Shown here in pieces: positions 6,138-37,039 of a DNA stretch of 39,178 nucleotides (its first letter is position 1; each line of letters opens with the position of its first letter). Source of the DNA: a virus. The notes below the pieces were generated by a model. That model searched no databases, was not told the origin of the DNA, and saw only the letters and a list, made by a program, of their open reading frames with translations. Both the position numbers and the translations under genes were made by a program. The stretch lies in UHGV virus genome UHGV-0034768; one strand, 5' to 3'.

Positions 6138-6160
6138 ACTAAACTATCACTATAGGGACT
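6138..6160 (+). promoter_or_regulatory. phage RNAP promoter (phi6.5 position), ACTAAACTATCACTATAGGGACT
   Basis: Full match to the window's promoter consensus; +1 G at 6155. Confidence 0.85.
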
Positions 6161-6221
6161 TTAGGACCTAAGATATGACTATAAGATAGACTTTAGTCTT
6201 AACTTAAAGAGGAGATTCAAG

Positions 6222-7393: not shown

Positions 7394-8962
7394 ATGGCTG
7401 AACGTGAAGGCTTTGCTGCTGAAGGCGCGAAGGCAGTTTATGATAGGCTAAAGAACGGACGACAGCCTTACGAGACCCGCGCACAAAACTGCGCTGCCGT
7501 GACCATCCCCTCACTGTTTCCTAAGGAGTCCGACAACTCGTCTACTGAGTACACAACTCCGTGGCAAGCTGTAGGTGCTCGCTGCTTGAACAACTTGGCT
7601 GCAAAGCTGATGTTGGCGTTATTCCCTCAGTCACCTTGGATGCGACTGACAGTCTCCGAATATGAGGCCAAGACCTTGAGTCAGGACTCAGAGGCGGCTG
7701 CTCGTGTTGACGAAGGTCTGGCTATGGTAGAGCGTGTGTTGATGGCCTACATGGAGACTAACAGTTTCCGTGTCCCATTGTTCGAAGCTCTGAAGCAGCT
7801 TATCGTCTCCGGTAACTGTCTGCTCTACATCCCTCCTCCAGAACAAGGAACCTACAGTCCTATGCGAATGTACCGCTTAGTGTCCTACGTTGTTCAACGT
7901 GATGCTTTCGGTAACATCTTACAGATTGTGACTCTCGACAAGGTAGCGTTTAGTGCTCTACCGGAAGACGTGAAGTCTCAACTCAACGCAGAAGACTATG
8001 AGCCTGACACCGAGCTGGAAGTATATACGCACATCTACCGTCAGGACGACGAGTATCTGCGCTACGAGGAAGTGGAAGGCATTGAGGTAGCAGGGACCGA
8101 TGGTTCTTACCCACTGACTGCCTGTCCATACATCCCGGTGCGAATGGTTCGACTGGATGGTGAAGACTATGGTCGTTCTTACTGCGAGGAGTATCTTGGG
8201 GACCTGAACTCGCTGGAGACGATTACAGAAGCTATCACCAAAATGGCTAAGGTAGCCTCCAAGGTGGTGGGCCTCGTTAACCCGAACGGCATCACGCAAC
8301 CTCGTCGTCTGAACAAGGCGGCTACAGGTGAGTTCGTGGCTGGTCGAGTTGAGGACATCAACTTCCTGCAACTGACGAAAGGTCAGGACTTTACGATTGC
8401 CAAGTCGGTGGCTGACGCTATCGAGCAACGTTTAGGCTGGGCCTTCCTTCTTAATAGTGCTGTTCAGCGTAATGCCGAGCGAGTCACTGCTGAAGAGATT
8501 CGTTATGTTGCTGGCGAACTGGAGGCGACCTTAGGTGGCGTGTACTCAGTACAATCCCAAGAGCTTCAGTTGCCTATCGTCCGTGTGCTGATGAACCAAC
8601 TTCAGTCTGCTGGCATGATTCCTGACCTTCCGAAAGAAGCGGTAGAGCCTACGGTCTCCACTGGTCTGGAAGCTCTGGGCCGTGGTCAGGACTTGGAGAA
8701 GCTGACTCAGGCGGTTAACATGATGACTGGTCTTCAGCAGCTATCTCAGGACCCGGACATCAACTTGCCGACCCTTAAGCTGCGACTCCTGAACGCTCTG
8801 GGTATCGACACCGCTGGCCTACTCCTGACGCAAGACGAGAAGATTCAGCGCATGGCTGAGCAGTCGTCTCAACAGGCAGTTGTCCAAGGTGCTAGTGCTG
8901 CTGGTGCTAACATGGGTGCTGCTGTAGGTCAAGGAGCTGGTGAGGACATGGCTCAAGCCTAA
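7394..8962 (+). CDS. gp8: portal (head-tail connector) protein, T7 gp8-like
   Basis: 522 aa; long blocks match T7 gp8 (YETRAQNCA, PWQAVGAR, MYRL.SYVVQRDAFGN, RMVRLDGE.YGRSY). Confidence 0.95.
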   Translation: MAEREGFAAEGAKAVYDRLKNGRQPYETRAQNCAAVTIPSLFPKESDNSSTEYTTPWQAVGARCLNNLAAKLMLALFPQSPWMRLTVSEYEAKTLSQDSEAAARVDEGLAMVERVLMAYMETNSFRVPLFEALKQLIVSGNCLLYIPPPEQGTYSPMRMYRLVSYVVQRDAFGNILQIVTLDKVAFSALPEDVKSQLNAEDYEPDTELEVYTHIYRQDDEYLRYEEVEGIEVAGTDGSYPLTACPYIPVRMVRLDGEDYGRSYCEEYLGDLNSLETITEAITKMAKVASKVVGLVNPNGITQPRRLNKAATGEFVAGRVEDINFLQLTKGQDFTIAKSVADAIEQRLGWAFLLNSAVQRNAERVTAEEIRYVAGELEATLGGVYSVQSQELQLPIVRVLMNQLQSAGMIPDLPKEAVEPTVSTGLEALGRGQDLEKLTQAVNMMTGLQQLSQDPDINLPTLKLRLLNALGIDTAGLLLTQDEKIQRMAEQSSQQAVVQGASAAGANMGAAVGQGAGEDMAQA

Positions 8963-8980
8963 ACTATCACTATAGGAACA
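8958..8980 (+). promoter_or_regulatory. phage RNAP promoter (phi9 position), CCTAAACTATCACTATAGGAACA
   Basis: Consensus match; +1 G at 8975. Confidence 0.8.
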
Positions 8981-9956: not shown

Positions 9957-9979
9957 ACTAAACTATCACTATAGGGAGA
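9957..9979 (+). promoter_or_regulatory. phage RNAP promoter (phi10 position), ACTAAACTATCACTATAGGGAGA
   Basis: Best match to a T7-type initiation region (GGGAGA at +1..+6); +1 G at 9974; upstream of the major capsid gene. Confidence 0.9.
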
Positions 9980-11394: not shown

Positions 11395-11397
11395 TTG

Positions 11398-11440
11398 AAA
11401 CCCCTTGGGTGCCTTCGGGTGCTTGAGGGGTTTTTTTGCT
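11398..11440 (+). terminator. Tphi-like late terminator
   Basis: AAACCCCTTGGGTGCCTTCGGGTGCTTGAGGGGTTTTTTTG: GC-rich hairpin plus U-run, very close to T7 Tphi (AACCCCTTGGGGCCTCTAAACGGGTCTTGAGGGGTTTTTTG). Confidence 0.85.
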
Positions 11441-11452
11441 TAAGGAGGGCCT

Positions 11453-14620: not shown

Positions 14621-14670
14621 AAGGGCCTATAGATTTACCTTAACTATCACTATAGGGACTATAGGCCCTT
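14621..14670. repeat. perfect 12-bp inverted repeat (AAGGGCCTATAG / CTATAGGCCCTT) bracketing the phi13 promoter
   Basis: Read directly; 26-nt spacer contains the promoter core; candidate RNase III-type processing hairpin in read-through RNA. Confidence 0.6.
14638..14660 (+). promoter_or_regulatory. phage RNAP promoter (phi13 position), CTTTAACTATCACTATAGGGACT
   Basis: Consensus match; +1 G at 14655. Confidence 0.8.
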
Positions 14671-21000: not shown

Positions 21001-21918
21001 AGTCTGACTGGCAGTAAGCGTAAGTTCGATGACCGCTGGCTGAAGACCGCTGGTATCTCTGACGAGCAGTGGAAGGGCATTAAGTCCCTAATCCGTGAGT
21101 CAGTGACTCGTGGGCCAGACGGGAAGTACATCATCAAGGATAAGAAGGCGTTCAGTCAGGACCCAAGGGCTATGGACCTGTGGCGCATGGGTGACACCAT
21201 AGCTGACGAAACGTTACTCCGTCCTCATAAGCTGTCAAACATGGACGCCAAGGCTTATGGCCCTCTCGCTAAGACTGTCCTTCAGTTTAAGAACTTCGTC
21301 ATCAAGTCCATCAATGGGCGAACCATGCGAACCTTCTACAACGCCACGAAGAACAACCGAGCGATGGACGCTGCCTTGTCCACTGTGATGTCTATGGGTC
21401 TCGCTGGTATCTACTACATGGCTCAAGCTCACGTCAAGGCTTACGCTATGCAGGATGGTCGAGACCGTGAATACCTCAAGCAAGCTCTTGACCCGACAAT
21501 GATTGGTTATGCGGCTCTGTCCCGTAGTTCACATCTGGGTGGTCCACTTGGGGTAGCTAACATTCTGGGTGGCATCGCTGGGTATGAGGACACTAAGATG
21601 CTCCGTTCGTCTATCCTACCCCGGTCGCCTACAGAGAAGCCTGAACGTGCCATCGCGTACGGTGCAACTACAAGTGGACCTGTGATGAATGTTGTTGGTA
21701 ACTTCTTGGAGCAGGTTCCAGCTTTCGGATATGCTGCTAACGTTGGCGCTTCGGCTTACAACTTGGCTGGCTACCTCAATGCTGATACTCGTGTCAACGA
21801 GCGTGACTACATGACCGGGATGTATAATACGTTCCGTGAACTGGTTCCGAACGACCCAATTACCCAGAAGCTGTTGCTTGGAACGTTTGAGGAGCAAGGT
21901 ATCCACATCAAGGACTAA
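18031..21918 (+). CDS. gp16: internal virion protein D with N-terminal lytic transglycosylase domain (T7 gp16-like)
   Basis: 1295 aa; N-terminus MATRGIRNNNPGNIR... typical of gp16 SLT domain; size and synteny. Confidence 0.9.
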   Translation: MATRGIRNNNPGNIRVSKDQWEGMTGDDGSFVVFDSPESGVRALGKNLLSYGRQGYDSIEKIINRWAPPNENDTKAYIDSVVAATGIPATQSLDLSNPDTLSSLAQAISFHETGSRYDPEVYQKGVARALNGISPKTPPVSSNVFDALTEGLKAKPKVALGENLPTAAGLNIEGQAPEAPNESFGEMFYKATGDTMQEREDRSTWFGFGAATEAEVKNSMVGMAIRAGQTEDSLDVIGDVFNPTRWNNHKWSRDELDQIRNSGVLPQYYGVITGGSPQNLTELINLALENQKLDQERAKAGTGAQLAAGVIGAGVDPLTYVPIAGQVGKGGKLINKMFTVAAQSGALSGVSEMARTSVAGGEAHVAEAILGGALFGGGMTAIADGLGRALGRNTNEFAGPATRLEARETARNVDGQDLSRMPIREGEETFSHQGVKFADVPNEPGSVRLEDGSILIGENPLNPKTRQVFDEVIEPERASAGVNLGGLTEIGLKLLRSENPEIRGVAADLVRSPTGMQSGASGKIGTTASDVFERLRAVDHRFYNDIDDAVTEALKDPYFQTAFWRDSGAFRQDIYQRVSMAIEDGSGNLKAELTPGELKVYDLLKNQFDAKREMMENPAMFGRPDAKSIFPGSRFKGTYVPHVYSKQMKELYTKELGSPEALQEAIKKSWLTSYASRPEVKKRVDEALLEADHTLTPEGLAAAVDKYANDKAYGISHTEQFERSSVMEENINGLVGLENNSFLEARNLFDSDMSIVLPNGQTFSVNNLREWDMDKIVPAYNRRVNGDIAIMAGTGKTTKEMKDLVETMMNKAGDDGKLKGEVSTLRDTLKILTGRARRDGADDAAFATVMRTMTDLSFFAKNAYMGVQNLTEIGGMLARGNVRALLHGVPMFRDLAFRNKKVGASEIKDLHNVIFGKELDDSIRPSKQDVIDRLRSYSDLGRGTATALGTAKYYTGELAVRSPFTKVLNGTTNYLLDAGRQGFLSDIVEHSLTGSKRKFDDRWLKTAGISDEQWKGIKSLIRESVTRGPDGKYIIKDKKAFSQDPRAMDLWRMGDTIADETLLRPHKLSNMDAKAYGPLAKTVLQFKNFVIKSINGRTMRTFYNATKNNRAMDAALSTVMSMGLAGIYYMAQAHVKAYAMQDGRDREYLKQALDPTMIGYAALSRSSHLGGPLGVANILGGIAGYEDTKMLRSSILPRSPTEKPERAIAYGATTSGPVMNVVGNFLEQVPAFGYAANVGASAYNLAGYLNADTRVNERDYMTGMYNTFRELVPNDPITQKLLLGTFEEQGIHIKD

Positions 21919-21936
21919 ACTATCACTATAGGAAAC
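21914..21936 (+). promoter_or_regulatory. phage RNAP promoter (phi17 position), ACTAAACTATCACTATAGGAAAC
   Basis: Consensus match; +1 G at 21931. Confidence 0.8.
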
Positions 21937-21982: not shown

Positions 21983-24247
21983 ATGTCCACGATTACACAA
22001 TTCCCTTCAGGAAACACCAAGTACAGGATTGAGTTCGACTACCTAGCCAGAACGTTTGTTGTTGTTACGCTGGTGAATAGCTCTAACCCTACCCTAAACC
22101 GTGTACTGGAAGTTGGTCGAGATTACCGATTCCTTAATCCAACGATGATTGAGATGTTGGTTGACCAATCAGGTTTCGACATCGTTCGTATTCACCGTCA
22201 GACTGGAACTGACTTAGTGGTAGACTTCAGGAATGGCTCAGTGTTGACAGCTAGTGACCTGACCAATGCAGAGCTTCAGGCTATCCATATTGCAGAAGAA
22301 GGTCGAGACCAAACTGTTGACTTAGCGAAGGAATATGCCGATGCTGCTGGTAACTCTGCTGGAAACGCTAAGGATAGCGAGGACGAAGCACGACGAATCG
22401 CTGAGAGTATCAAGGCAGCTGGTCTAATTGGTTATATTACCCGTCGCTCCTTCGAGAAAGGCTTCAACGTTACAACATGGAACGAGGCCCTGCTATGGGA
22501 AGAGGATGGTGATTATTACCGCTGGGATGGTACGCTTCCAAAGAACGTTCCTGCTGGTTCAACTCCTGAATCATCTGGCGGTATTGGGCTGGGTGCGTGG
22601 GTTAGTGTTGGAGATGCCACATTGCGCACGGAATTAAATCTGATAACTAGATACTTTTCGACCGCTACTCAATTACCTGGAATACGAGCTAAAATAGGGC
22701 AGAGGATTATAACACTTGGTTATTACTCGGCAGGCGATGGTGGTGGTGCTGAATATATTGTAACATCAGGGGTGCCAAATCAAGACTACTCTGATGCAGG
22801 ATCGATTGCTATCTCAGATAATTCTTTCGCAAAGCTCGTCCAAAAACCACAATTTGACCTTAAACAGTTCGGAGTAAAACCATCTGACGCGTCTGCGGCA
22901 GCGGATAATGATGTATTTATCGCTCAGGCAATAATGCGTTCACGCTTCGGGTTCTGCAAAATAACTATATCTGACGTAGTATACCACAAAAAGCCTTTAG
23001 TGTTCGATTACTATAACCACATGGAAGGTAATACTATTGGCGGCGATGCAAGTTACACTCCGCGATTCCGAAAAATCGATAACACGACAAGCGGAATTGC
23101 ACCACTGGCGTACCCTAATGTCAGTGATACCGTGAACTATGATGTGGACGCTGGAATAATTTTGAAGCGACAGAATGCGGCAACGGATTATTGTCGAGGC
23201 GTTGTTTTAAAAGGCTTTCTCTTAGAGTCAATGGCGAAGTCAGCATGGGCAATTTATGCCCCCCATGCCGCAGATTTCGATATTGATATAGATAGCCGTG
23301 GGTTCAACGGTGGAATCCGTGGGAATGTTAATTTCCTTGGTAGGTACTCTGGACGCCATGTGGGGCTTGGTGAGAATGCGGTAGACCCTACGCTTGCTAT
23401 AGGTCTATGGTTTAGTCATTTCTCAACCATCCTCGACTGCGGTAATTCAGTTACTTTCCGCAATTCATTTAACGGATTCAACAGAGCCATACAGGCTGAG
23501 TATTTTGGGAACGGAATACTTGACCGTTGTACCTTCGAAAACATCAAAAAGCCGGTTGTTGGCGCCCCAACTACGTTCGGCATTAGCGCAACAAACAGTT
23601 GGTTTAGTGGTCAAATATCATGCGAGAGTTCATCAACATGTATCATACGTGCTGGCAATAACGCGAACTTCGATATTACCCTTAGTGCGGTATTTCATGT
23701 CACGCAAGATGATATTGCGGAGGGGATTATCCATGTTCTTAGCGGTGGCAGGGTTAACCTGCGCCCTTCCACAATTCTTGCTGATTTGCCAGATACAAAA
23801 ATCATTAATGATAATGGAGGTTATCTAGATATTGCTGCAAATACCAGAGCAGCAAATATTGTTTATTCCAATCATGATACTTACAGATTCAAAGACAGAA
23901 CTATTGGCTTTGGTCAGACTGCGGCAACTACAAAAACAAGTTTCTCTTCTGGTGAAGAGATTACATTTTCACTACTAAACGGAACGCCAAAGGCGAATCT
24001 ATCTGGCGGAACGATCCAGTTTAACTCTCCGGGCCTGATTAAAATCACCGTACAGGGGAGGGGTATAACATCAGGATCACTTACTTTTGGGATAAATGGG
24101 GCATCTTCAGAGAGCGTGAGTCAGGGACAGCAGGTTTCTATGGTTGTCGGAGTAACGTCCGGTGACATTCTTAACCTGAAGGCGGCCTCCTCGCTGACGT
24201 TGGGATCTGCAGGAGGGGTGCGGGTACTTCTTGAGCCTGTGTTTTAA
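21983..24247 (+). CDS. gp17: tail fibre/tailspike: T7 gp17-like N-terminal anchor fused to a probable beta-helix polysaccharide depolymerase
   Basis: N-terminal ~150 aa resembles T7 gp17 ([27 protein letters not shown]); remainder is G/S/T/N-rich with pectate-lyase-like motifs ([32 protein letters not shown]); DNA visibly AT-richer from about 22630. Confidence 0.85.
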
Positions 24248-26180: not shown

Positions 26181-27944
26181 TTGAGTAAAGACTTAGTGGC
26201 GCGTCAGGCGCTAATGACTGCCCGTATGAAGGCAGACTTCGTGTTCTTCCTGTTCGTCCTGTGGAAAGCTCTGTCACTCCCAGTCCCGACTCGCTGTCAG
26301 ATTGACATGGCGAAGAAACTATCGGCTGGGGACAACAGGCGTTTCATCCTACAGGCGTTCCGTGGTATCGGGAAGTCCTTCATTACGTGTGCCTTCGTGG
26401 TATGGAAACTATGGAACAACCCAGACTTGAAGTTCATGATTGTGTCGGCCTCAAAGGAGCGAGCCGATGCTAACTCCATCTTCATCAAGCGCATCATCGA
26501 CCTCATGCCTCAGCTTCAGGAACTCAAACCTAAGCAGGGACAGCGAGATGCGGTTATCAGCTTCGACGTTGGACCAGCCAAGCCAGACCACTCACCCTCG
26601 GTTAAGTCCGTTGGTATCACTGGTCAGTTGACTGGTAGTCGTGCTGACATCCTGATTGCCGATGACGTGGAGGTTCCTAACAACTCTGCGACTCAGGCTG
26701 CGCGAGATCGACTTTCAGAGCTTGTGAAAGAGTTCGACGCTATCCTGAAGCCGGGAGGTACAATCATCTATCTGGGTACTCCTCAGAACGAGATGACCCT
26801 ATATCGTGAGCTGGAAGGCCGTGGGTACACCACTACTATCTGGCCAGCTCGTTATCCACGCGACAGGAAAGACTGGCAGTCTTACGGCGACCGTCTGGCA
26901 CCGATGCTTCAGGCAGAGCTAGAAGAGGACCCTGAGTCATTCTACTGGCGTCCTACCGATGAGGTACGATTCGATGATACGGACCTGAAGGAACGTGAGC
27001 TATCCTATGGTAAAGCTGGCTTCGCTCTACAGTTCATGCTTAACCCGAACCTGAGTGATGCTGAGAAGTACCCTCTGAAGCTCCGTGACCTTATCGTAGC
27101 AGACTTGGACCCAGCGTCCAGCCCAATGGTATACCAATGGTTGCCAAACCCTCAGAACAAGCGTGAGGACGTTCCTAACGTTGGACTCATGGGTGACTCA
27201 TACCACACGTATCAGACTGTAGGTTCTGCCTTCAGCTCATACACCCAGAAGATTCTGGTCATTGACCCTAGTGGTCGTGGTAAGGATGAAACTGGATATG
27301 CGGTACTGTATCAACTCAACGGCTACATCTTCGCTATGGAAGTTGGTGGTATGCGTGGAGGGTATGAAGACTCTACGCTGGAAGCATTGGCTAAGATTGG
27401 TCGTAAGTGGAAGGTCAACGAATACGTCATTGAGGGTAACTTCGGTGATGGTATGTACCTTGAGCTATTCAAGCCTGTAGCGGCCCGTATCCATCCTGCG
27501 GCTGTAACTGAAGTGAAGAGTAAGGGTCAGAAAGAACTCCGCATCTGTGACGTTCTGGAGCCTATCATGGGGTCTCACAGACTTATTGTTAACGCTGCTG
27601 CTATCGTCCAAGACTACCAGACAGCTGCCGACAAGGATGGTGTGCGTAACCCTATCTACTCTCTCTTCTACCAGATGACCCGTATCTCTCGTGAACGTGG
27701 AGCCTTGGCACACGATGACAGACTTGATGCGCTGGCTATAGGTGTACAGTTCTTCGTTGAGTCTATGGCTAAGGATGCCAACAAAGGTGAACGTGAAGTC
27801 ACTGAGGAGTGGCTTGAGGAACAGATGGAGAACCCACGGAAAGGCTTCGAGTCCATCCACACTGAGTTCTGGGACAATGGGGTCCGGGTAACTCACGATA
27901 CGGACGACGAGCTGGGACTAGGGTCATACGTTACGTTCCACTAG
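26181..27944 (+). CDS. gp19: terminase large subunit (T7 gp19-like)
   Basis: 587 aa; TTG start with AAGGAGGTGA RBS; blocks [68 protein letters not shown] match T7 gp19. Confidence 0.95.
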
Positions 27945-28038
27945 CTGAATGAATAACTATAGGTGAAAGCTGCATGAATACGCAGTTAGTACCCTATAGT
28001 TACTACCAGTATAACCTACTGTTTTACAAGGAGTTTGG

Positions 28039-28061
28039 ACTTAACTATCACTATAGGGAAG
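28039..28061 (+). promoter_or_regulatory. phage RNAP promoter (phiOR position), ACTTAACTATCACTATAGGGAAG
   Basis: Consensus match; +1 G at 28056; downstream of terminase near the genome right end, as T7 phiOR. Confidence 0.8.
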
Positions 28062-28639: not shown

Positions 28640-28835
28640 TCTCACAGTTCAAGAACTTCAAGTCTCCCCATAGGCCCTCTTTCAGTCCAGACCAAAGGCC
28701 CTCCCCAGTCTATCATAAGGTTGGACCTATGGTCAAGACGTTAGGTCGACGATAGGTCTAGGCTATGGCTGGAGGTCAGACGATAGGTAGGGACTATTGG
28801 TTGTCTCCGAGTCTCTATCTGTATACCATAGGTCT
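28640..28835. repeat. candidate direct terminal repeat region (single collapsed copy); probable physical left end near 28640
   Basis: TCTCACAGT...CTCCCCATAGG at 28640 and ...TGTCTCCGAGTCTCTATCTGTATACCATAGGTCTC resemble the T7 left-end terminal repeat (TCTCACAGTGTACGG...CCCCCATAGGGGG ... TGTCTCTCTGTGTCCCTATCTGTTACAGTCTCC). Confidence 0.4.
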
Positions 28836-28926: not shown

Positions 28927-29039
28927 TAATAGACACAAAGCTATAGACTTAAGGTCTAAGACATGTTAGTCAAAGACTATATCCTCTTAGTCACTATGGG
29001 GCCGACGATAGCTTAATCGATATTATTTAAGATTACCTA

Positions 29040-29068
29040 TTGACTATAGGTCTAGACTATGGCCTAAT
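29040..29068 (+). promoter_or_regulatory. candidate host sigma70 early promoter (A1-like)
   Basis: TTGACT at 29040-29045, then a 17-nt spacer and a weak -10 (CCTAAT); collinear with T7 A1 (TTGACTTAAAGTCTAACCTATAGGATACT). Confidence 0.4.
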
Positions 29069-29180
29069 AGCTTCCGTCAACACGACACGGCAACAACCGG
29101 ATAGTGAAGACGCCGGGTCATCCCGGTTAAGTAGACAGCCTGATAAGTCATACGAACAACAGGCAGATGACAGAAAGCAG

Positions 29181-29210
29181 TTGACAAGATGTACCGACTT
29201 AAAGTAGTAT
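29181..29210 (+). promoter_or_regulatory. candidate host sigma70 early promoter (A3-like)
   Basis: TTGACA at 29181-29186, 18-nt spacer, TAGTAT at 29205-29210; flanking sequence CCGGATA.GTAGACAGCCTGATAAGTC closely matches the T7 A2/A3 region. Confidence 0.5.
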
Positions 29211-29398
29211 GTACCACATCGAAACAACAGTGATGACCAACACTGAAATGGTCTACCTGAAGTCCTCTGACTGAAGGGAATGCTCTTTAACAATCTGGAT
29301 AAAACTCTTAATGTGCGCCGATAGCGACTAACTACAGGGCCTTTGAGTATACATCTGAAGGCCCTGACTGATAGTCACTAACTTAAAGGATGGACACT

Positions 29399-30907: not shown

Positions 30908-30930
30908 ACTTAACTATCACTATAGGACTC
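30908..30930 (+). promoter_or_regulatory. phage RNAP promoter directly upstream of the RNAP gene, ACTTAACTATCACTATAGGACTC
   Basis: Consensus match; +1 G at 30925, 74 nt upstream of the RNAP start codon. Confidence 0.75.
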
Positions 30931-30998: not shown

Positions 30999-33680
30999 AT
31001 GAGCGTCATCTCCATTGACAAACACGACTTCTCTGATGTGTCTAACGCTATTGAGCCGTTTAACCTGCTGGCTGACCACTACGGGCAAGACCTTGCAGTC
31101 AAGCAACTTCAGCTTGAGCATGAGGCATACACTGAAGGCGAGCGACGTTTCATCAAGAACCTTGAGCGTCAGACAGAGCGCGGTGAACTGGCAGACAATC
31201 AGGTCGCCAAGCCTTTGATGCAGACTCTGGTCCCTAAGATTGCGCAAGCCGTCAAGGAGTGGCATGACGGTCCAGACGGGAAGATGTCAACATCTCGTCC
31301 TAGCGTAGCGTTCACCATGTTGAGCACTGAAGAGAAGGCCGTCAAGGACCGCTCTCTGCGCATCTCCTGTGAGTCTGCTGCGGTTATCATACTGAAGGTC
31401 ATCCTCTCCAAGCTGGTAAAGCCTGAAGGGATACCGATTACACCGATGGCCTCAGCGATAGGTCGCACACTTGAGGACGAAATCCGCTTCGGTCGCATCC
31501 GTGACAAGGAGAAGGAGCACTTCAAGAAGGCGATAGCTGAGAACCTGAACAAGCGAGCCGGGGCATCCTACAAGAAAGCCTACATGCAAGCTGTTGAGAC
31601 CTCCATGCTTGAGCAAGGTCAACTGGAAGATGCGTGGGGAACTTGGAGTCCGACCGAGGCGGTCCATGTTGGCATCAAGATGCTTGAGATTGTCATCCAG
31701 TCCACTCAACTGGTAGAGCTTAAGCGTTATGGTGCTGGCAATGCAGCGGCTGATGTTGAGATGGTCCACCTATCAGACTTCTGGGTCAAGAAGATGGCCC
31801 AACGTGGCTTCAGCCTTGCGGGTATCGCTCCAGTCTATCAACCTTGCGTAGTTCCACCTAAGCCGTGGACGGGTGTCGTAGGCGGTGGGTATTGGGCCAA
31901 AGGACGCAGACCGTTGCCACTGATTCGCTTAGGGTCTAAGTCTGCGGTAGCACGTTATGAGGACGTGTACATGCCTGAAGTCTATGACGCTGTGAACATC
32001 ATCCAGAATACACCTTGGAAAGTTAACAAGAAGGTGTTGGACGTGGTGAACATGGTCGAGAAGCTGAACAACACGCCTATTGATGATATCCCTCAGATGG
32101 AGCCACTGAAGCCTGAAGACTATGCGGGTGAGACTGAAGAGGAACTCAAGGCATGGAAGAAGGCTGCTGCTGGTATCTACCGCCGAGAGAAGGCCCGGCA
32201 GTCACGTAGATTGTCACTGAGCTTTATCGTTAACCAGGCTAACAAGTTCTCTCAGTTCAAGGCCATCTGGTTCCCGTATAACATGGACTGGCGCGGTCGC
32301 GTATACGCTGTGCCGATGTTCAACCCTCAGGGTAACGACATGCAAAAGGGTCTCCTTACTCTGGCAGTCGGTAAGCCTATTGGTGCTGATGGTTTCAAAT
32401 GGCTGAAGGTCCACGGTGCAAACTGTGCGGGTATTGATAAAGTCACCTTCGAGGAGCGCATCAAGTGGGTGGAAGACAACCACGACAACATCATGACTAC
32501 TGCTAAGGCACCGATGGACAGCATTGAGTGGTGGGGTAAGTTAGACTCTCCGTTCTGCTTCCTCGCGTTCTGCTTCGAGTATGCTGGCGTAATGCACCAC
32601 GGCCTATCTTACTCTTGCTCGCTACCGATAGCTTTCGATGGGTCCTGCTCTGGGATTCAGCACTTCAGCGCGATGCTTCGAGATCACATCGGTGGACATG
32701 CAGTAAACTTGACGCCATCCGGTAAGGTCCAAGACATCTACCGCATCGTATCCGACCGCATTGAGGAGGAACTTAAAGTCCTGCTGGTTAACGGTACGGA
32801 CAACGAGATGGTAACTCACGAGGATAAGAAAACTGGTGAGATTACCGAGCGTCTCAAGCTGGGGACACGAGAGCTGTCCCGTCAGTGGCTGACCTACGGT
32901 ATGTCACGCAAGGTTACTAAGCGTTCGGTTATGACTCTGGCCTACGGGTCGAAAGAGTACGGCTTCGCAGACCAAGTTTACGAGGACATCGTGATGCCAG
33001 CGATTGACTCAGGGTCTGGTGCCATGTTCACCGAGCCAAGCCAAGCGTCTCGTTTCATGGCTAAGATGATTTGGGAAGCTGTGAGTGTGACCGTAGTCGC
33101 TGCGGTTGACGCAATGAAGTGGCTTCAAGGTGCTGCTAAGCTGCTGGCTGCTGAAGTAAAGGACAAGAAGACAGGCGAAATACTGAAGCCTTGCCTTCCG
33201 GTACACTGGGTAACACCTGATGGTTTCCCGGTCTGGCAGGAATACCGCAAGAAGGATACAACCCGTCTGAACCTGATGTTCTTAGGGTCGTTCAACCTTC
33301 AGCCTACCGTCAACAGGGGTACGAAGAAAGAGCTGGACAAGCACAAGCAGGAGTCAGGCATTAGCCCGAACTTCGTCCACTCACAAGATGGTAGCCACCT
33401 CCGCAAGACTGTAGTCCACACGCACCGCAAGTATGGCGTAATGTCCTTCGCAGTGATTCACGATAGCTTCGGGACCATCCCGGCTGACGCTGAGTATCTG
33501 TTCCGTGGGGTCCGTGAGACTATGGTAGAGACCTACCGCGACAATGATGTGCTGCTTGACTTCTACGAGCAGTTCGAATACCAGCTTCACGAGAGCCAGC
33601 GCGACAAGTTGCCTGAGCTTCCGAAGAAAGGTAAACTGAACATAGAAGACATCTTGTCTTCAGACTTTGCATTCGCTTAA
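30999..33680 (+). CDS. gp1: DNA-directed RNA polymerase, single-subunit (T7 gp1-like)
   Basis: Start at MSVISIDKHDFSD (T7 MNTINIAKNDFSD) with AAGGA RBS; extensive identity to T7 RNAP including PWTGVVGGGYWA, FPYNMDWRGRVYAV, NCSLP.AFDGSCSGIQHFSAMLRD, HDSFGT, and C-terminal FAFA. Confidence 0.97.
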   Translation: MSVISIDKHDFSDVSNAIEPFNLLADHYGQDLAVKQLQLEHEAYTEGERRFIKNLERQTERGELADNQVAKPLMQTLVPKIAQAVKEWHDGPDGKMSTSRPSVAFTMLSTEEKAVKDRSLRISCESAAVIILKVILSKLVKPEGIPITPMASAIGRTLEDEIRFGRIRDKEKEHFKKAIAENLNKRAGASYKKAYMQAVETSMLEQGQLEDAWGTWSPTEAVHVGIKMLEIVIQSTQLVELKRYGAGNAAADVEMVHLSDFWVKKMAQRGFSLAGIAPVYQPCVVPPKPWTGVVGGGYWAKGRRPLPLIRLGSKSAVARYEDVYMPEVYDAVNIIQNTPWKVNKKVLDVVNMVEKLNNTPIDDIPQMEPLKPEDYAGETEEELKAWKKAAAGIYRREKARQSRRLSLSFIVNQANKFSQFKAIWFPYNMDWRGRVYAVPMFNPQGNDMQKGLLTLAVGKPIGADGFKWLKVHGANCAGIDKVTFEERIKWVEDNHDNIMTTAKAPMDSIEWWGKLDSPFCFLAFCFEYAGVMHHGLSYSCSLPIAFDGSCSGIQHFSAMLRDHIGGHAVNLTPSGKVQDIYRIVSDRIEEELKVLLVNGTDNEMVTHEDKKTGEITERLKLGTRELSRQWLTYGMSRKVTKRSVMTLAYGSKEYGFADQVYEDIVMPAIDSGSGAMFTEPSQASRFMAKMIWEAVSVTVVAAVDAMKWLQGAAKLLAAEVKDKKTGEILKPCLPVHWVTPDGFPVWQEYRKKDTTRLNLMFLGSFNLQPTVNRGTKKELDKHKQESGISPNFVHSQDGSHLRKTVVHTHRKYGVMSFAVIHDSFGTIPADAEYLFRGVRETMVETYRDNDVLLDFYEQFEYQLHESQRDKLPELPKKGKLNIEDILSSDFAFA

Positions 33681-33694
33681 CAGGAGAGATAGTT

Positions 33695-33895
33695 ATGAAA
33701 TTTGCACACAAGCAGACAGGAGTTAAGGGTGGGACTCAAATCGTGACCGTAACAGAACATAATGGCAAGGGTCTGGTGAAGACCACAGTCATTCCTACCG
33801 AGATGTCAAAACAGCTTAACGTCCAGTTCAAGTGGCTGGTTAAGCAGGTGGAGCAGACGCACGAGCAGGTCCTTAAAGAGGCGGCAACCAAATGA
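33695..33895 (+). CDS. hypothetical protein (66 aa)
   Basis: ORF with CAGGAGAGA RBS right after the RNAP stop; no T7 counterpart at this position. Confidence 0.55.
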   Translation: MKFAHKQTGVKGGTQIVTVTEHNGKGLVKTTVIPTEMSKQLNVQFKWLVKQVEQTHEQVLKEAATK

Positions 33896-33973
33896 CAGAC
33901 CTACAGTTACTGGCCTTGTGGCTGGGAGCACTAGCAGTACTCACTCTAATCCAACGCAGAAGAGGTTAACCAT

Positions 33974-34453
33974 ATGTTCGGTAAGTCAAAACTTAAAGCA
34001 CAAATCAAAGAGTTGAGCATGAAGGTGGCATACTTGGAGCGAGTCGTAACGGTCCGGGATAAGGACAACGAGAGGCTGAAGGTTAAACTTGCTGAATCAG
34101 AGCGTAAGCGCCTGACACCACCAGCGGCTGTAACTGTCAAGCGTATGGTAGGCATCAAGTTCAAGGCACTGTTCAACGGGCTGTACCAACCGACTGAGTT
34201 CAAGACAGGGCCTGGTAGCTGCGGGAAGAACGTTAAGCATTTCACCATATCGAAGACTGAACGCACCATTACCATCCACCAGCACCACGTAGACGGGTCT
34301 CAGAAAGACTTTGAGTACCGACTGAGCGACATCGATGGTCGCATCCAGTATGACTACGAGCGGGTTAAGGTCTATGGCGAGGAGGCAGAGCAGGAACGTA
34401 TAGTACAAGCCTTACGCAACAGACAACGATTATACCCTAAACTATCACTATAG
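33974..34453 (+). CDS. hypothetical protein (159 aa; N-terminal heptad-like helical region)
   Basis: ORF with GAAGAGG RBS; no T7 counterpart between gene 1 and gene 1.1; function unknown. Confidence 0.6.
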   Translation: MFGKSKLKAQIKELSMKVAYLERVVTVRDKDNERLKVKLAESERKRLTPPAAVTVKRMVGIKFKALFNGLYQPTEFKTGPGSCGKNVKHFTISKTERTITIHQHHVDGSQKDFEYRLSDIDGRIQYDYERVKVYGEEAEQERIVQALRNRQRLYPKLSL

Positions 34454-34458
34454 GATTA
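34436..34458 (+). promoter_or_regulatory. phage RNAP promoter (phi1.1 position), CCTAAACTATCACTATAGGATTA
   Basis: Consensus match; +1 G at 34453; overlaps the stop of the upstream ORF. Confidence 0.8.
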
Positions 34459-34529
34459 GACTCAAGGTCATGACTCAAAGTCGTGGCCTTCATGATTAAC
34501 CCTATAACCTAAACAACTGGAGCTACAAC

Positions 34530-34709
34530 ATGTATCAGAACACTATCAACTTCGAGCGCATCCGTGAACGTCAGCAGACTGAAGATTACATTCCGAAGGG
34601 CCGCAAGCTGAACAAGACAAAGCGTGGCGGTGGTGTCAAGGGTGCTTTCCGTAACGCTGAAGGTAAAGACTCTCTGGTAAATCAAGAGAAATACTTCGTA
34701 GGAGCGTAA
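34530..34709 (+). CDS. gp1.1: gp1.1-like small basic protein
   Basis: 59-aa ORF not in the supplied track; contains KGRKLNKTKR as in T7 gp1.1. Confidence 0.7.
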   Translation: MYQNTINFERIRERQQTEDYIPKGRKLNKTKRGGGVKGAFRNAEGKDSLVNQEKYFVGA

Positions 34710-34712
34710 GAC

Positions 34713-35000
34713 ATGGGCATGTTCTCAAGAGCACATAGTGGAAACCTGAACACCCTGCGTAAAGCCATCCACAACTGGCAGTCCGAGACCGACTATAACG
34801 CAGTGGTCAACACTTGGTTTGACCCAAGGATGAACAGGCACTGCGTCAGGGCGGTTATAGTCCACATTCATACACGAGAGGTCCTCATCGAGAAGGACTT
34901 CACGGAGTACCCGAATATCCACGACGAAGATGTGCAGACAGTAGCGGTTGCCACTTGGTTTAACAAACAGTTCAACGACTACACTGGTCGATTCCTTTAA
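34713..35000 (+). CDS. gp1.2: gp1.2-like protein (T7 gp1.2 inhibits host dGTP triphosphohydrolase)
   Basis: 95 aa; MG....SGNL N-terminus and HDEDV motif as in T7 gp1.2. Confidence 0.75.
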   Translation: MGMFSRAHSGNLNTLRKAIHNWQSETDYNAVVNTWFDPRMNRHCVRAVIVHIHTREVLIEKDFTEYPNIHDEDVQTVAVATWFNKQFNDYTGRFL

Positions 35001-35017
35001 TTCTGGAGACATTAACG

Positions 35018-36058
35018 ATGACAACTATCAAAACTAACCCGCACCGCGCTGTAGATTACTCTGAGTCAGGCGTTACGAAAGCACTGGCAGCAGCCGGGTC
35101 GCTGGAAGCTGAAGTGAAGTACGATGGTGTGCGCCTGAATCTCCCGGTCCTGCGTGAAGGTGAGACCTACTGGCTGAGCCGTGAGTCTAAACCTCTTCCA
35201 GCCTTGGAGTGGATGAACTCTGAGTTAGGGAATGCGTGGACCCAAGCTGACTGGCGATGGTTCCTGCGTCAAGCTGGCTACGAAGGTGTGGGCATGATGA
35301 TTGATGGCGAGGTCATGGTCAAAGGTGTGGACTTCAACACCTCCTCAGGTCTAATCAGAACGAAGTGGCTAAAGCCTAACAATGAAGAGTTCGCTGAGTG
35401 CTATCCTGGACGTGGTAAGAAGGTCCCGTTCTGGGTCGCACGGTCACGACTTCAGGTTGTGGTCTACGGTGTCATCGACATGACAACAATTGCTGACCCG
35501 AAAGCCGAAGGCCCTATACATAGCGTCACACGCCTTAAGGCCGAAGCTATCGTCCCTCTCCTCCAGAAATACTTCCCGGAAATCGACTGGGTTCTGTCTG
35601 AGTCACACACGGTCTATGACCTTGAGTCGCTCAACTCCCTGTACGAACAGAAGCGTCTGGAAGGACACGAGGGTCTGGTAGTCAAGGACCCACTGGGTAA
35701 ATATAAGCGTGGCAAGAAGTCAGGCATGTGGAAGATGAAGCCTGAGGAGACCATCGACGGGACCGTGTGTGGTCTCGTGTGGGGGACTCAGGGTAAGGCC
35801 AACGAAGGTAAGGTGATTGGCTTCGAGGTGCTGCTTGAGGATGGCATGGTGGTTAATGCTTGTGGCCTGACTGAAGAACAGAAGGCTGAGTTTACGGAAG
35901 CCTGTAACACTGATACATATATTCTCGGTGGAATCAATCCATACGAAGGCTGGCAGTGTGAAGTGCTATTCATGGAGCGGTTCCCTGATGGCTCTCTTCG
36001 TCACCCTAGCTTCAAGTGCTGGCGTGGAACGGAAGACAATCCAACCGTTAAGAGTTAA
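35018..36058 (+). CDS. gp1.3: ATP-dependent DNA ligase (T7 gp1.3-like)
   Basis: 346 aa; adenylation motif KYDGVR; blocks MVKGVDFNTSSGLIRTKW, YEQKRLEGHEGLVVKDP, KRGKKSGMWKMKPE, PDGSLRHPSF..WRGTEDNP match T7 ligase. Confidence 0.95.
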   Translation: MTTIKTNPHRAVDYSESGVTKALAAAGSLEAEVKYDGVRLNLPVLREGETYWLSRESKPLPALEWMNSELGNAWTQADWRWFLRQAGYEGVGMMIDGEVMVKGVDFNTSSGLIRTKWLKPNNEEFAECYPGRGKKVPFWVARSRLQVVVYGVIDMTTIADPKAEGPIHSVTRLKAEAIVPLLQKYFPEIDWVLSESHTVYDLESLNSLYEQKRLEGHEGLVVKDPLGKYKRGKKSGMWKMKPEETIDGTVCGLVWGTQGKANEGKVIGFEVLLEDGMVVNACGLTEEQKAEFTEACNTDTYILGGINPYEGWQCEVLFMERFPDGSLRHPSFKCWRGTEDNPTVKS

Positions 36059-36065
36059 CTAGACG

Positions 36066-36108
36066 TCAACCCAGTGGTCTTAGGACTGCTGGGTTTCTTT
36101 GCTTTGTG
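36066..36108 (+). terminator. early (TE-like) intrinsic terminator after the ligase gene
   Basis: AACCCAG...CTGGGTT 7-bp stem followed by TCTTTGCTTTG; same position as T7 TE. Confidence 0.6.
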
Positions 36109-36140: not shown

Positions 36141-36163
36141 CCTAAGCTATCACTATAGGACAA
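36141..36163 (+). promoter_or_regulatory. phage RNAP promoter (phi1.5 position), CCTAAGCTATCACTATAGGACAA
   Basis: Consensus match with G at -12; +1 G at 36158. Confidence 0.75.
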
Positions 36164-36862: not shown

Positions 36863-37021
36863 ATGACTGAGGTTGAGAAGAAATACATCGTGGAGCTTGA
36901 GGGTCGCGTTCAGTCCTTCGAGGTTCCGGTGTACGCAAAGTCTCTTGAAGAGGCTACCCTGAAGTCCCAAGAGTATGAGGACGCTGGGTTCGTGGTCGGA
37001 CGGATTCGTCCTGAGACCTAA
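36863..37021 (+). CDS. gp2: gp2-like inhibitor of host RNA polymerase
   Basis: 52 aa; [15 protein letters not shown]....YEDAGF.VGRIRP resembles T7 gp2 HSFEVPIYAETLDEA...YVPAGFEVTRVRP; RBS GGAAGGAG. Confidence 0.8.
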
Positions 37022-37039
37022 ACTATCACTGTAGGACAG
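37017..37039 (+). promoter_or_regulatory. variant phage RNAP promoter (phi2.5 position), CCTAAACTATCACTGTAGGACAG
   Basis: Consensus except G at -3; +1 G at 37034. Confidence 0.6.

Follow-up and report, generated by a model that had tools for sequence, protein, structure and literature searches.

Genome organization of the analyzed phage

The window, i.e., the whole stretch of DNA analyzed here (39,178 nucleotides; UHGV virus genome UHGV-0034768), represents the complete genome, in circularly permuted form, of a Kayfunavirus (Autographiviridae, Studiervirinae), one of the K1F-like relatives of T7. It belongs to this genus by nucleotide identity and synteny with genus members. In megablast searches, a 25-kb query comprising the replication and structural region matched many deposited Kayfunavirus genomes with ~94% identity across 91-93% of its length, the early region showed ~92% identity to many Kayfunavirus records, and the order of genes is that of phage EcoDS1. 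Hosts of the matching records include Escherichia, Salmonella, Klebsiella, Hafnia, and Morganella. The ends of the window (39178|1) fall between gene 3.5 and a small open reading frame (ORF) upstream of gene 4. The terminal repeat is present as one collapsed 177-bp copy inside the window, at positions 28640-28816 (TCTCACAGTTC...GAGTCTCT), and the corresponding EcoDS1 repeat comprises 178 bp.

Two terminators were identified on the + strand. The early terminator TE (36068-36105), composed of a 12-bp stem and a T-run, is located between the ligase gene and the phi1.6 promoter, at the place of the EcoDS1 'terminator TE' (7668-7697). The late, Tphi-type terminator (11397-11444), with a 17-bp stem and a T-run, lies between genes 10 and 11 and is placed as the EcoDS1 terminator 22122-22157. 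The early region also contains two host sigma-70-type promoters (29040-29076 and 29181-29216), which correspond by orthology to the first and second of the three annotated in EcoDS1; the segment holding the third one is missing from the window and from K1F, which has two such promoters as well.

The product of gene 17 (21983-24247, 754 aa) consists of the N-terminal domain of the T7 tail fiber followed by a Tail_spike_N (TSP1/Gp66) domain. The product of K1F gene 17 (32666-35860), a reported endosialidase, is far longer (~1064 aa) and unlike that of the phage analyzed here, so the host receptor probably differs from that used by K1F. ARAGORN found no tRNA genes in the window; in the Enterobacter Kayfunavirus record PQ411323.1, a tRNA-Thr is annotated at 27882-27960, preceded by the gene 4 promoter and followed by the primase gene.

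A family of eleven promoter elements

A 23-bp element (MCTWARCTATCACTATAGG) occurs in 11 copies upstream of genes, all of them on the + strand, which is also the coding strand. These copies are found at all 11 coordinates listed in the preliminary description of this DNA. A search with the 15-mer AACTATCACTATAGG, allowing up to three mismatches, yielded 11 matches in the window, eight of them exact, compared with 0.87 expected from 100 dinucleotide-preserving shuffles, none of which reached 11. A position weight matrix (PWM) constructed from the 11 sites assigned them scores of 29.6-35.6 bits (25.2-34.3 bits in leave-one-out scoring), whereas the best non-family site on either strand reached 16.9 bits and the remaining sites no more than 9.7 bits. 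The element extends from -17 to +6 and combines the core TCACTATAGG (-8 to +2) with ACTAT at -12 to -8. All 11 copies have C at -11, T at -10, A at -9, T at -8, C at -7, A at -6, C at -5, T at -2, A at -1, and G at both +1 and +2; positions -16, -15, and -13 are likewise invariant, and A at -12 is found in 10 of the 11. Each copy either lies between genes or overlaps the final codons of the preceding gene, and the distance from +1 to the next ORF ranges from 21 to 260 nt, with the exception of phiOR at the right genome end.

In the early and DNA-metabolism regions, the element located before gene 1 (30908-30930; ACTTAACTATCACTATAGGACTC) is identical to the EcoDS1 site 2244, annotated as 'promoter phi', and to K1F 2474. 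The copy at the phi1.1 position (34436-34458; CCTAAACTATCACTATAGGATTA) is orthologous to the annotated EcoDS1 site 6034 and to K1F 5552. It is followed by phi1.6 (36141-36163; CCTAAGCTATCACTATAGGACAA; identical to EcoDS1 7725 'phi1.6' and K1F 7183), which is located directly downstream of the early terminator, and by phi2.5 (37017-37039; CCTAAACTATCACTGTAGGACAG; identical to EcoDS1 8719 'phi2.5' and K1F 8499), a class II-type variant. The promoter before gene 4, encoding the primase-helicase (226-248; CCTAAACTATCACCTTAGGGATG; identical to the annotated EcoDS1 site 11107), is the lowest-scoring member of the family (29.6 bits; 25.2 bits in leave-one-out scoring). In the late region, phi6.5 (6138-6160; ACTAAACTATCACTATAGGGACT) matches EcoDS1 16992, K1F 17177, and 'phi6.5' of phage PE3-1, and phi9 (8958-8980; CCTAAACTATCACTATAGGAACA) matches EcoDS1 19813 'phi9'. 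The phi10 copy (9957-9979; ACTAAACTATCACTATAGGGAGA), identical to EcoDS1 20819 and K1F 20997, precedes the major capsid gene by 108 nt. The remaining copies are phi13 (14638-14660; CCTTAACTATCACTATAGGGACT; EcoDS1 25367 'phi13'), phi17 (21914-21936; ACTAAACTATCACTATAGGAAAC; EcoDS1 33040 'phi17'), which overlaps the stop codon of gene 16, and phiOR at the right genome end (28039-28061; ACTTAACTATCACTATAGGGAAG; EcoDS1 38500 'phiOR').

Several of these promoters contain the end of the upstream gene. In four of them, the TAA at -15 to -13 doubles as the stop codon of the upstream gene, namely the ORF before gene 4 (228-230), gene 8 (8960-8962), gene 16 (21916-21918), and the gene 2 region (37019-37021), and a fifth overlap is formed by the TAG at -2 to +1 of the phi1.1-position copy (34451-34453), which terminates gene 1.05. 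Coding and promoter constraints thus overlap at these sites.

For the promoter preceding gene 1, +1 is located at 30925 and the ATG codon of the RNA polymerase (RNAP) gene 74 nt further on. In the T7 record, an E. coli promoter is the only one shown at that place, and the presence of a phage-type promoter so close to the polymerase gene implies positive feedback on polymerase synthesis. The site is labeled 'phi' in EcoDS1, and its equivalent in PE3-1 is labeled 'host RNAP promoter', apparently in error.

Exact-consensus copies precede structural and late genes (6.5, 9, 10, 13, and 17) and the right end, whereas copies substituted at -12, -4, or -3 precede the DNA-metabolism genes 1.6, 2.5, and 4. 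The substituted copies comprise phi1.6, which has G at -12, phi2.5, with G at -3, and the promoter before gene 4, with C at -4 and T at -3; the latter two had already been singled out in the preliminary description for substitutions at -4/-3. T7 shows the same arrangement, with consensus copies before late genes and deviant copies before middle genes. This division parallels the strong class III and weaker class II promoters of T7, which suggests that the deviant copies may be the weaker ones here as well. As the same deviations are found again in K1F, EcoDS1, and many IMG/VR contigs, they are maintained and do not represent recent decay.

Of the sites outside the family, the one at 6167-6189 (CCTAAGATATGACTATAAGATAG) scored best (16.9 bits); it is situated in the leader of gene 6.5, 29 nt downstream of phi6.5. 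Three positions at which the family is invariant are altered in this site (A at -11, G at -7, and A at +1), which is therefore probably not functional. K1F, EcoDS1, and the Enterobacter Kayfunavirus all carry an identical sequence, but the surrounding region is 99% conserved throughout, which makes this conservation uninformative. Predicted RNA folding of the gene 6.5 leader was no better than that of shuffled sequences (z = 0.26).

The RNA polymerase and its specificity loop

Gene 1 (30999-33680, + strand) encodes a single-subunit DNA-dependent RNAP of K1F type composed of 893 aa, assigned by Pfam and homology; the coordinates given earlier for this gene are correct. The protein shares 99% identity with gp1 of K1F and EcoDS1, 64% with T7 RNAP, and 63% with T3 RNAP. 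Both RNA_pol (PF00940; 355.7 bits) and RPOL_N (PF14700; 54.8 bits) domains were detected, and residues 1-893 align with residues 1-883 of T7 RNAP in the 1cez and 1aro structures. It is thus a full-length T7-family single-subunit RNAP, collinear with T7 RNAP.

The codons corresponding to the T7 specificity loop Q744-I761 are located at 33258-33311 (+ strand) and encode TTRLNLMFLGSFNLQPTV, identical in K1F and EcoDS1, compared with QTRLNLMFLGQFRLQPTI in T7. Four substitutions distinguish the loop from that of T7 (T7 numbering): Q744T, Q754S, R756N, and I761V, whereas R746, N748, and Q758 are retained; N766 and S764 of the phage protein are equivalent to T7 R756 and Q754, respectively. The K1F specificity loop (N748/N756/Q758, S754, and V761) and the promoters described above are therefore encoded in the same genome. 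A loop identical to that of T7 RNAP had been considered in the preliminary description as evidence against a separate specificity, and comparison of the two loops showed that they are not identical.

Comparison with promoters of T7, T3, and K11

The elements share the architecture of T7 class II/III promoters, including the length of 23 bp, GG from +1, and corresponding positions on the genetic map. As reported earlier for this DNA, they read ACTA at -12 to -9, where T7 has CGAC; the only exception to ACTA is the copy at 36141. TCACTATA at -8 to -1 is common to the phage and T7. An additional difference, absent from the preliminary description, is found at -17 to -14, where the phage has MCTW and T7 has TAAT. 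The phi10 copy and the T7 consensus agree at 15 of 23 positions, comprising -8 to +6 and -13, and the mismatches form two segments, -17 to -14 and -12 to -9. Promoters taken from the T7 and T3 records, e.g., T7 phi1.1B (TAATACGACTCACTATAGGAGAA) and T3 phi1.05 (CATTAACCCTCACTAACGGGAGA), served as references. Neither T7-type sites (consensus TAATACGACTCACTATAG) nor T3-type sites were found in the window with up to three mismatches to the respective consensus. The phage further differs from T7 in the replacement of R756 by asparagine in the polymerase and in the extra promoter directly before gene 1, with no counterpart in the T7 record.

T3 and K11 provide further examples of co-variation between loop and promoter in Studiervirinae. 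The T3 consensus has A at -12 and C at -11, as here, but reads ACCCT, and its RNAP carries D748. K11 promoters read GGRCA/C, and the K11 RNAP has K748 and a different loop.

Orthology and distribution of K1F-type promoters

All 11 copies map one-to-one onto 'regulatory promoter phi...' features of EcoDS1, whose record (EU734172) annotates promoters phi, phi1.6, phi2.5, phi6.5, phi9, phi13, phi17, and phiOR; the PE3-1 record (KJ748011) annotates some of them (phi6.5, phi9, and the gene 10 promoter). This copy-for-copy orthology supports the original proposal that the elements are promoters for the phage RNAP. K1F (NC_007456) and EcoDS1 possess the same 11 sites relative to genes, with 23-mers which are identical or differ only at -17, and the variants GCTAT (phi1.6), CACTGTA (phi2.5), and CACCTTA (before gene 4) are common to the three genomes. 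Although the DNA of the phage is only ~92-94% identical to that of the nearest deposited phages and its tail spike is different, its promoters otherwise show no difference from those of K1F and EcoDS1.

The 17-mer TAAACTATCACTATAGG was found in 82 stretches from ~20 IMG/VR contigs of 39-40 kb. Phage RNAPs sharing at least 80% identity with that of the window were found in ~220 records, and the next RNAPs, those of the T7 and T3 groups, reach only ~64%. In Enterobacter phage vB_VIPECLMC06, the RNAP shows 93% identity and the same loop except for M750L, with the contact residues retained, and the genome carries 12 promoters of K1F type.

Promoter recognition and alternative explanations

The 11 elements are almost certainly middle and late (class II/III-type) promoters of a K1F-like phage, read by its own T7-family RNAP. 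By analogy with T7, the polymerase would bind duplex DNA from -17 to -5, with the specificity loop entering the major groove at -12 to -7, and the common TATA at -4 to -1 would be melted before initiation at the +1 G. Specificity would differ from that of T7 through asparagine in place of arginine at the position reading -9/-10 (T7 R756), together with Q754S, Q744T, and I761V, and the altered loop would be matched by ACTA instead of CGAC at -12 to -9. R756N is consistent with an A:T instead of a C:G pair at -9 because arginine favors guanine and asparagine favors adenine, and on this ground we would tentatively assign R756N to -9. N748 is the same as in T7 though -11/-10 reads CT here and GA in T7, which makes the residue-to-base assignment incomplete. 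We infer initiation at each site, the relative strengths of the promoters, and the residue-to-base reading in this phage from comparison with its relatives.

The K1F-type promoter consensus, the positions of the promoters, their non-T7 specificity, and the matching loop are already known from annotation and publications and have found use in synthetic biology. In the work of Temme et al. (2012; PMC3458549), specificity hairpins served to group phage RNAPs, a promoter was predicted for each group, and T7 Q744-I761 and promoter positions -12 to -7 were replaced with K1F versions. The resulting T7(K1F)/PK1F pair was active (17-fold induction), was described as 'highly orthogonal', and controlled a pathway. 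The graft of this loop and ACTAT into T7 RNAP was functional and largely orthogonal (PMC3458549), so that the non-T7 promoter specificity suggested earlier for this DNA has been demonstrated by experiment for this very pair of loop and promoter. The K1F pair was reused by Segall-Shapiro et al. (2014; PMC4299498; K1FR sigma fragment), who observed weak performance of the K1F loop in a split T7 RNAP until M750R was introduced. A family-wide co-variation network includes the K1F pair and lists the graft as '632S, 754S, 756N, 761V' with the cognate 'ACTAT' (NAR 2025; PMC11880802, Table 2); residues 754S, 756N, and 761V and the bases ACTAT are those found in the window. In the same study, residues 746, 748, 756, and 758 were recognized as hydrogen-bonding, co-varying positions, with R746 coupled to -7, N748 to -11/-10, R756 to -10/-9, and Q758 to -8 (PMC11880802). 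The engineered T7(K1F)/PK1F pair shares 754S, 756N, 761V, and ACTAT at -12 to -8 with the window, but it combines the T7 scaffold with a hybrid promoter retaining TAATA of T7 at -17 to -13, whereas natural promoters have MCTWA there and the natural AT-rich recognition loop differs. All functional evidence in the papers examined comes from such T7 chimeras with hybrid promoters and none from a native K1F-type RNAP; a 2026 RNAP-mining paper does not cover the K1F-type group.

It could be argued that the promoters are real but that the polymerase is not truly orthogonal, so that it would usefully cross-read T7 or T3 promoters and the difference at -12 to -9 would represent drift. Three of the four base-contacting residues (R746, N748, and Q758) are indeed the same as in T7, the grafted T3/K1F/N4 set was orthogonal to a limited degree, with a smallest cognate/non-cognate ratio of 8, i.e., relatively high non-cognate activity, and promoter nodes (AATAT) bridge the T7 and K1F groups of the network (PMC11880802). 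Against this, the fourth contact, R756, which reads G:C at -9, is replaced by asparagine while A at -9 is found in all 11 copies, T7(K1F) strongly preferred its own promoter variant (Temme et al., 2012; PMC3458549), and T7-type sites are missing from the window. Drift is further opposed by the retention of ACTAT in 10 of the 11 copies and of each of its bases in 40-43 of 43 distinct sites from related contigs, a set preselected for at least four of five matches to ACTAT; retention across copies and related contigs argues for selection. We consider the non-orthogonal reading improbable, although it is the most credible of the alternatives. Far less plausible, to the point of being nearly negligible, is that the repeats constitute another dispersed signal involved in RNA processing, replication, or packaging, or host sigma-70 promoters. 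Such signals are also intergenic in T7-like phages, and nothing specific was found in favor of this explanation, whereas from -8 to +6 the copy at 9957 matches the T7 promoter exactly, the phage encodes a cognate T7-family RNAP, and the spacing and positions of the copies fit the T7 promoter map (phi1.6, 2.5, 6.5, 9, 10, 13, 17, and OR). Moreover, sigma-70-like matches in the scanned regions occurred at the frequency expected from shuffles (11 versus 9.9 and 3 versus 5.0).

The remaining question concerns the number of promoters, as the preliminary description counted twelve, including a degenerate copy near 28985, which could be seen as a weak promoter and the counterpart of phiOL. T7 has phiOL near its left end, and K11 has an annotated phiOL placed similarly to this element, which is situated upstream of the host-type promoters, ~345 nt in from the left genome end, and contains TCACTAT followed by GGG. 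The PWM score, however, is below zero in every register, with a maximum of -2.6 at 28982, 3 nt from the coordinate originally reported. The element has only TCACTAT..GG in common with the family, with TTAG in place of ACTA at -12 to -9 and G at -1. Nor is it conserved: K1F and EcoDS1 read CTTACACCATG(A/G)GG there (CTTACACCATGG/AGG), with a 2-nt indel, and the curated annotation of EcoDS1 contains no phiOL and no feature at this place. A twelfth promoter is thus very unlikely, and the count is 11. The main value of assigning the elements to the phage RNAP lies in annotation, with 11 promoters, two terminators, and the polymerase confidently labeled; the twelfth site should stay unlabeled.

The upstream half of the promoter

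C at -16 and T at -15 are present in all 11 copies in the window. Among the 43 distinct sites from related contigs, obtained from retrieved loci and anchored only on CACNNTAGG and the ACTAT matches mentioned above, C at -16 occurs in 39, T at -15 in 43, and A at -13 in 42. In contrast, T7, T3, and K11 promoters contain solely A or T at -16 to -13. The segment corresponding to the T7 AT-rich recognition loop (residues ~93-101), which may read -17 to -13, is encoded at 31275-31307 (+ strand) and reads DGKMSTSRPSV, compared with KAKRG-KRPT in T7; it has fewer basic residues (R96 and K98 are lost) and one or two extra residues.

The occurrence of -16C/-15T beside a remodeled AT-rich loop is the sole point beyond the literature examined, since detailed analysis in the 2025 co-variation study was restricted to the specificity loop (PMC11880802). 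It raises the possibility, which we put forward tentatively and regard as less probable than its opposite, that K1F-type promoters hold a second specificity determinant upstream of the specificity-loop contacts. If the AT-rich loop did read -16/-15 in a base-specific manner, loop-graft chimeras would fall short of the natural enzyme in orthogonality, and this could also account for the weakness of chimeras on promoters retaining TAATA of T7. Such a preference would be of modest interest, as a native K1F-type enzyme might provide a cleaner orthogonal system than T7 chimeras.

Just after the AT-rich recognition loop, the RNAP carries an 11-aa insertion compared with T7 and T3 RNAP (EEKAVKDRSLR; aa 111-121, 31329-31361). 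At the same site the K11 RNAP has a 20-aa insertion, so the region is a variable part of the surface of Studiervirinae RNAPs. The insertion was rejected as a determinant of -16C/-15T because K11 promoters read AATTA in their upstream part.

In RefSeq, gp1 of K1F (NC_007456, 2566-5247), EcoDS1 (NC_011042), ST31, and PE3-1 is named 'N4-like RNA polymerase' (the latter two in records NC_047829 and NC_024379). This name is misleading, since gp1 is a T7-type enzyme, collinear with T7 RNAP and 64% identical to it.
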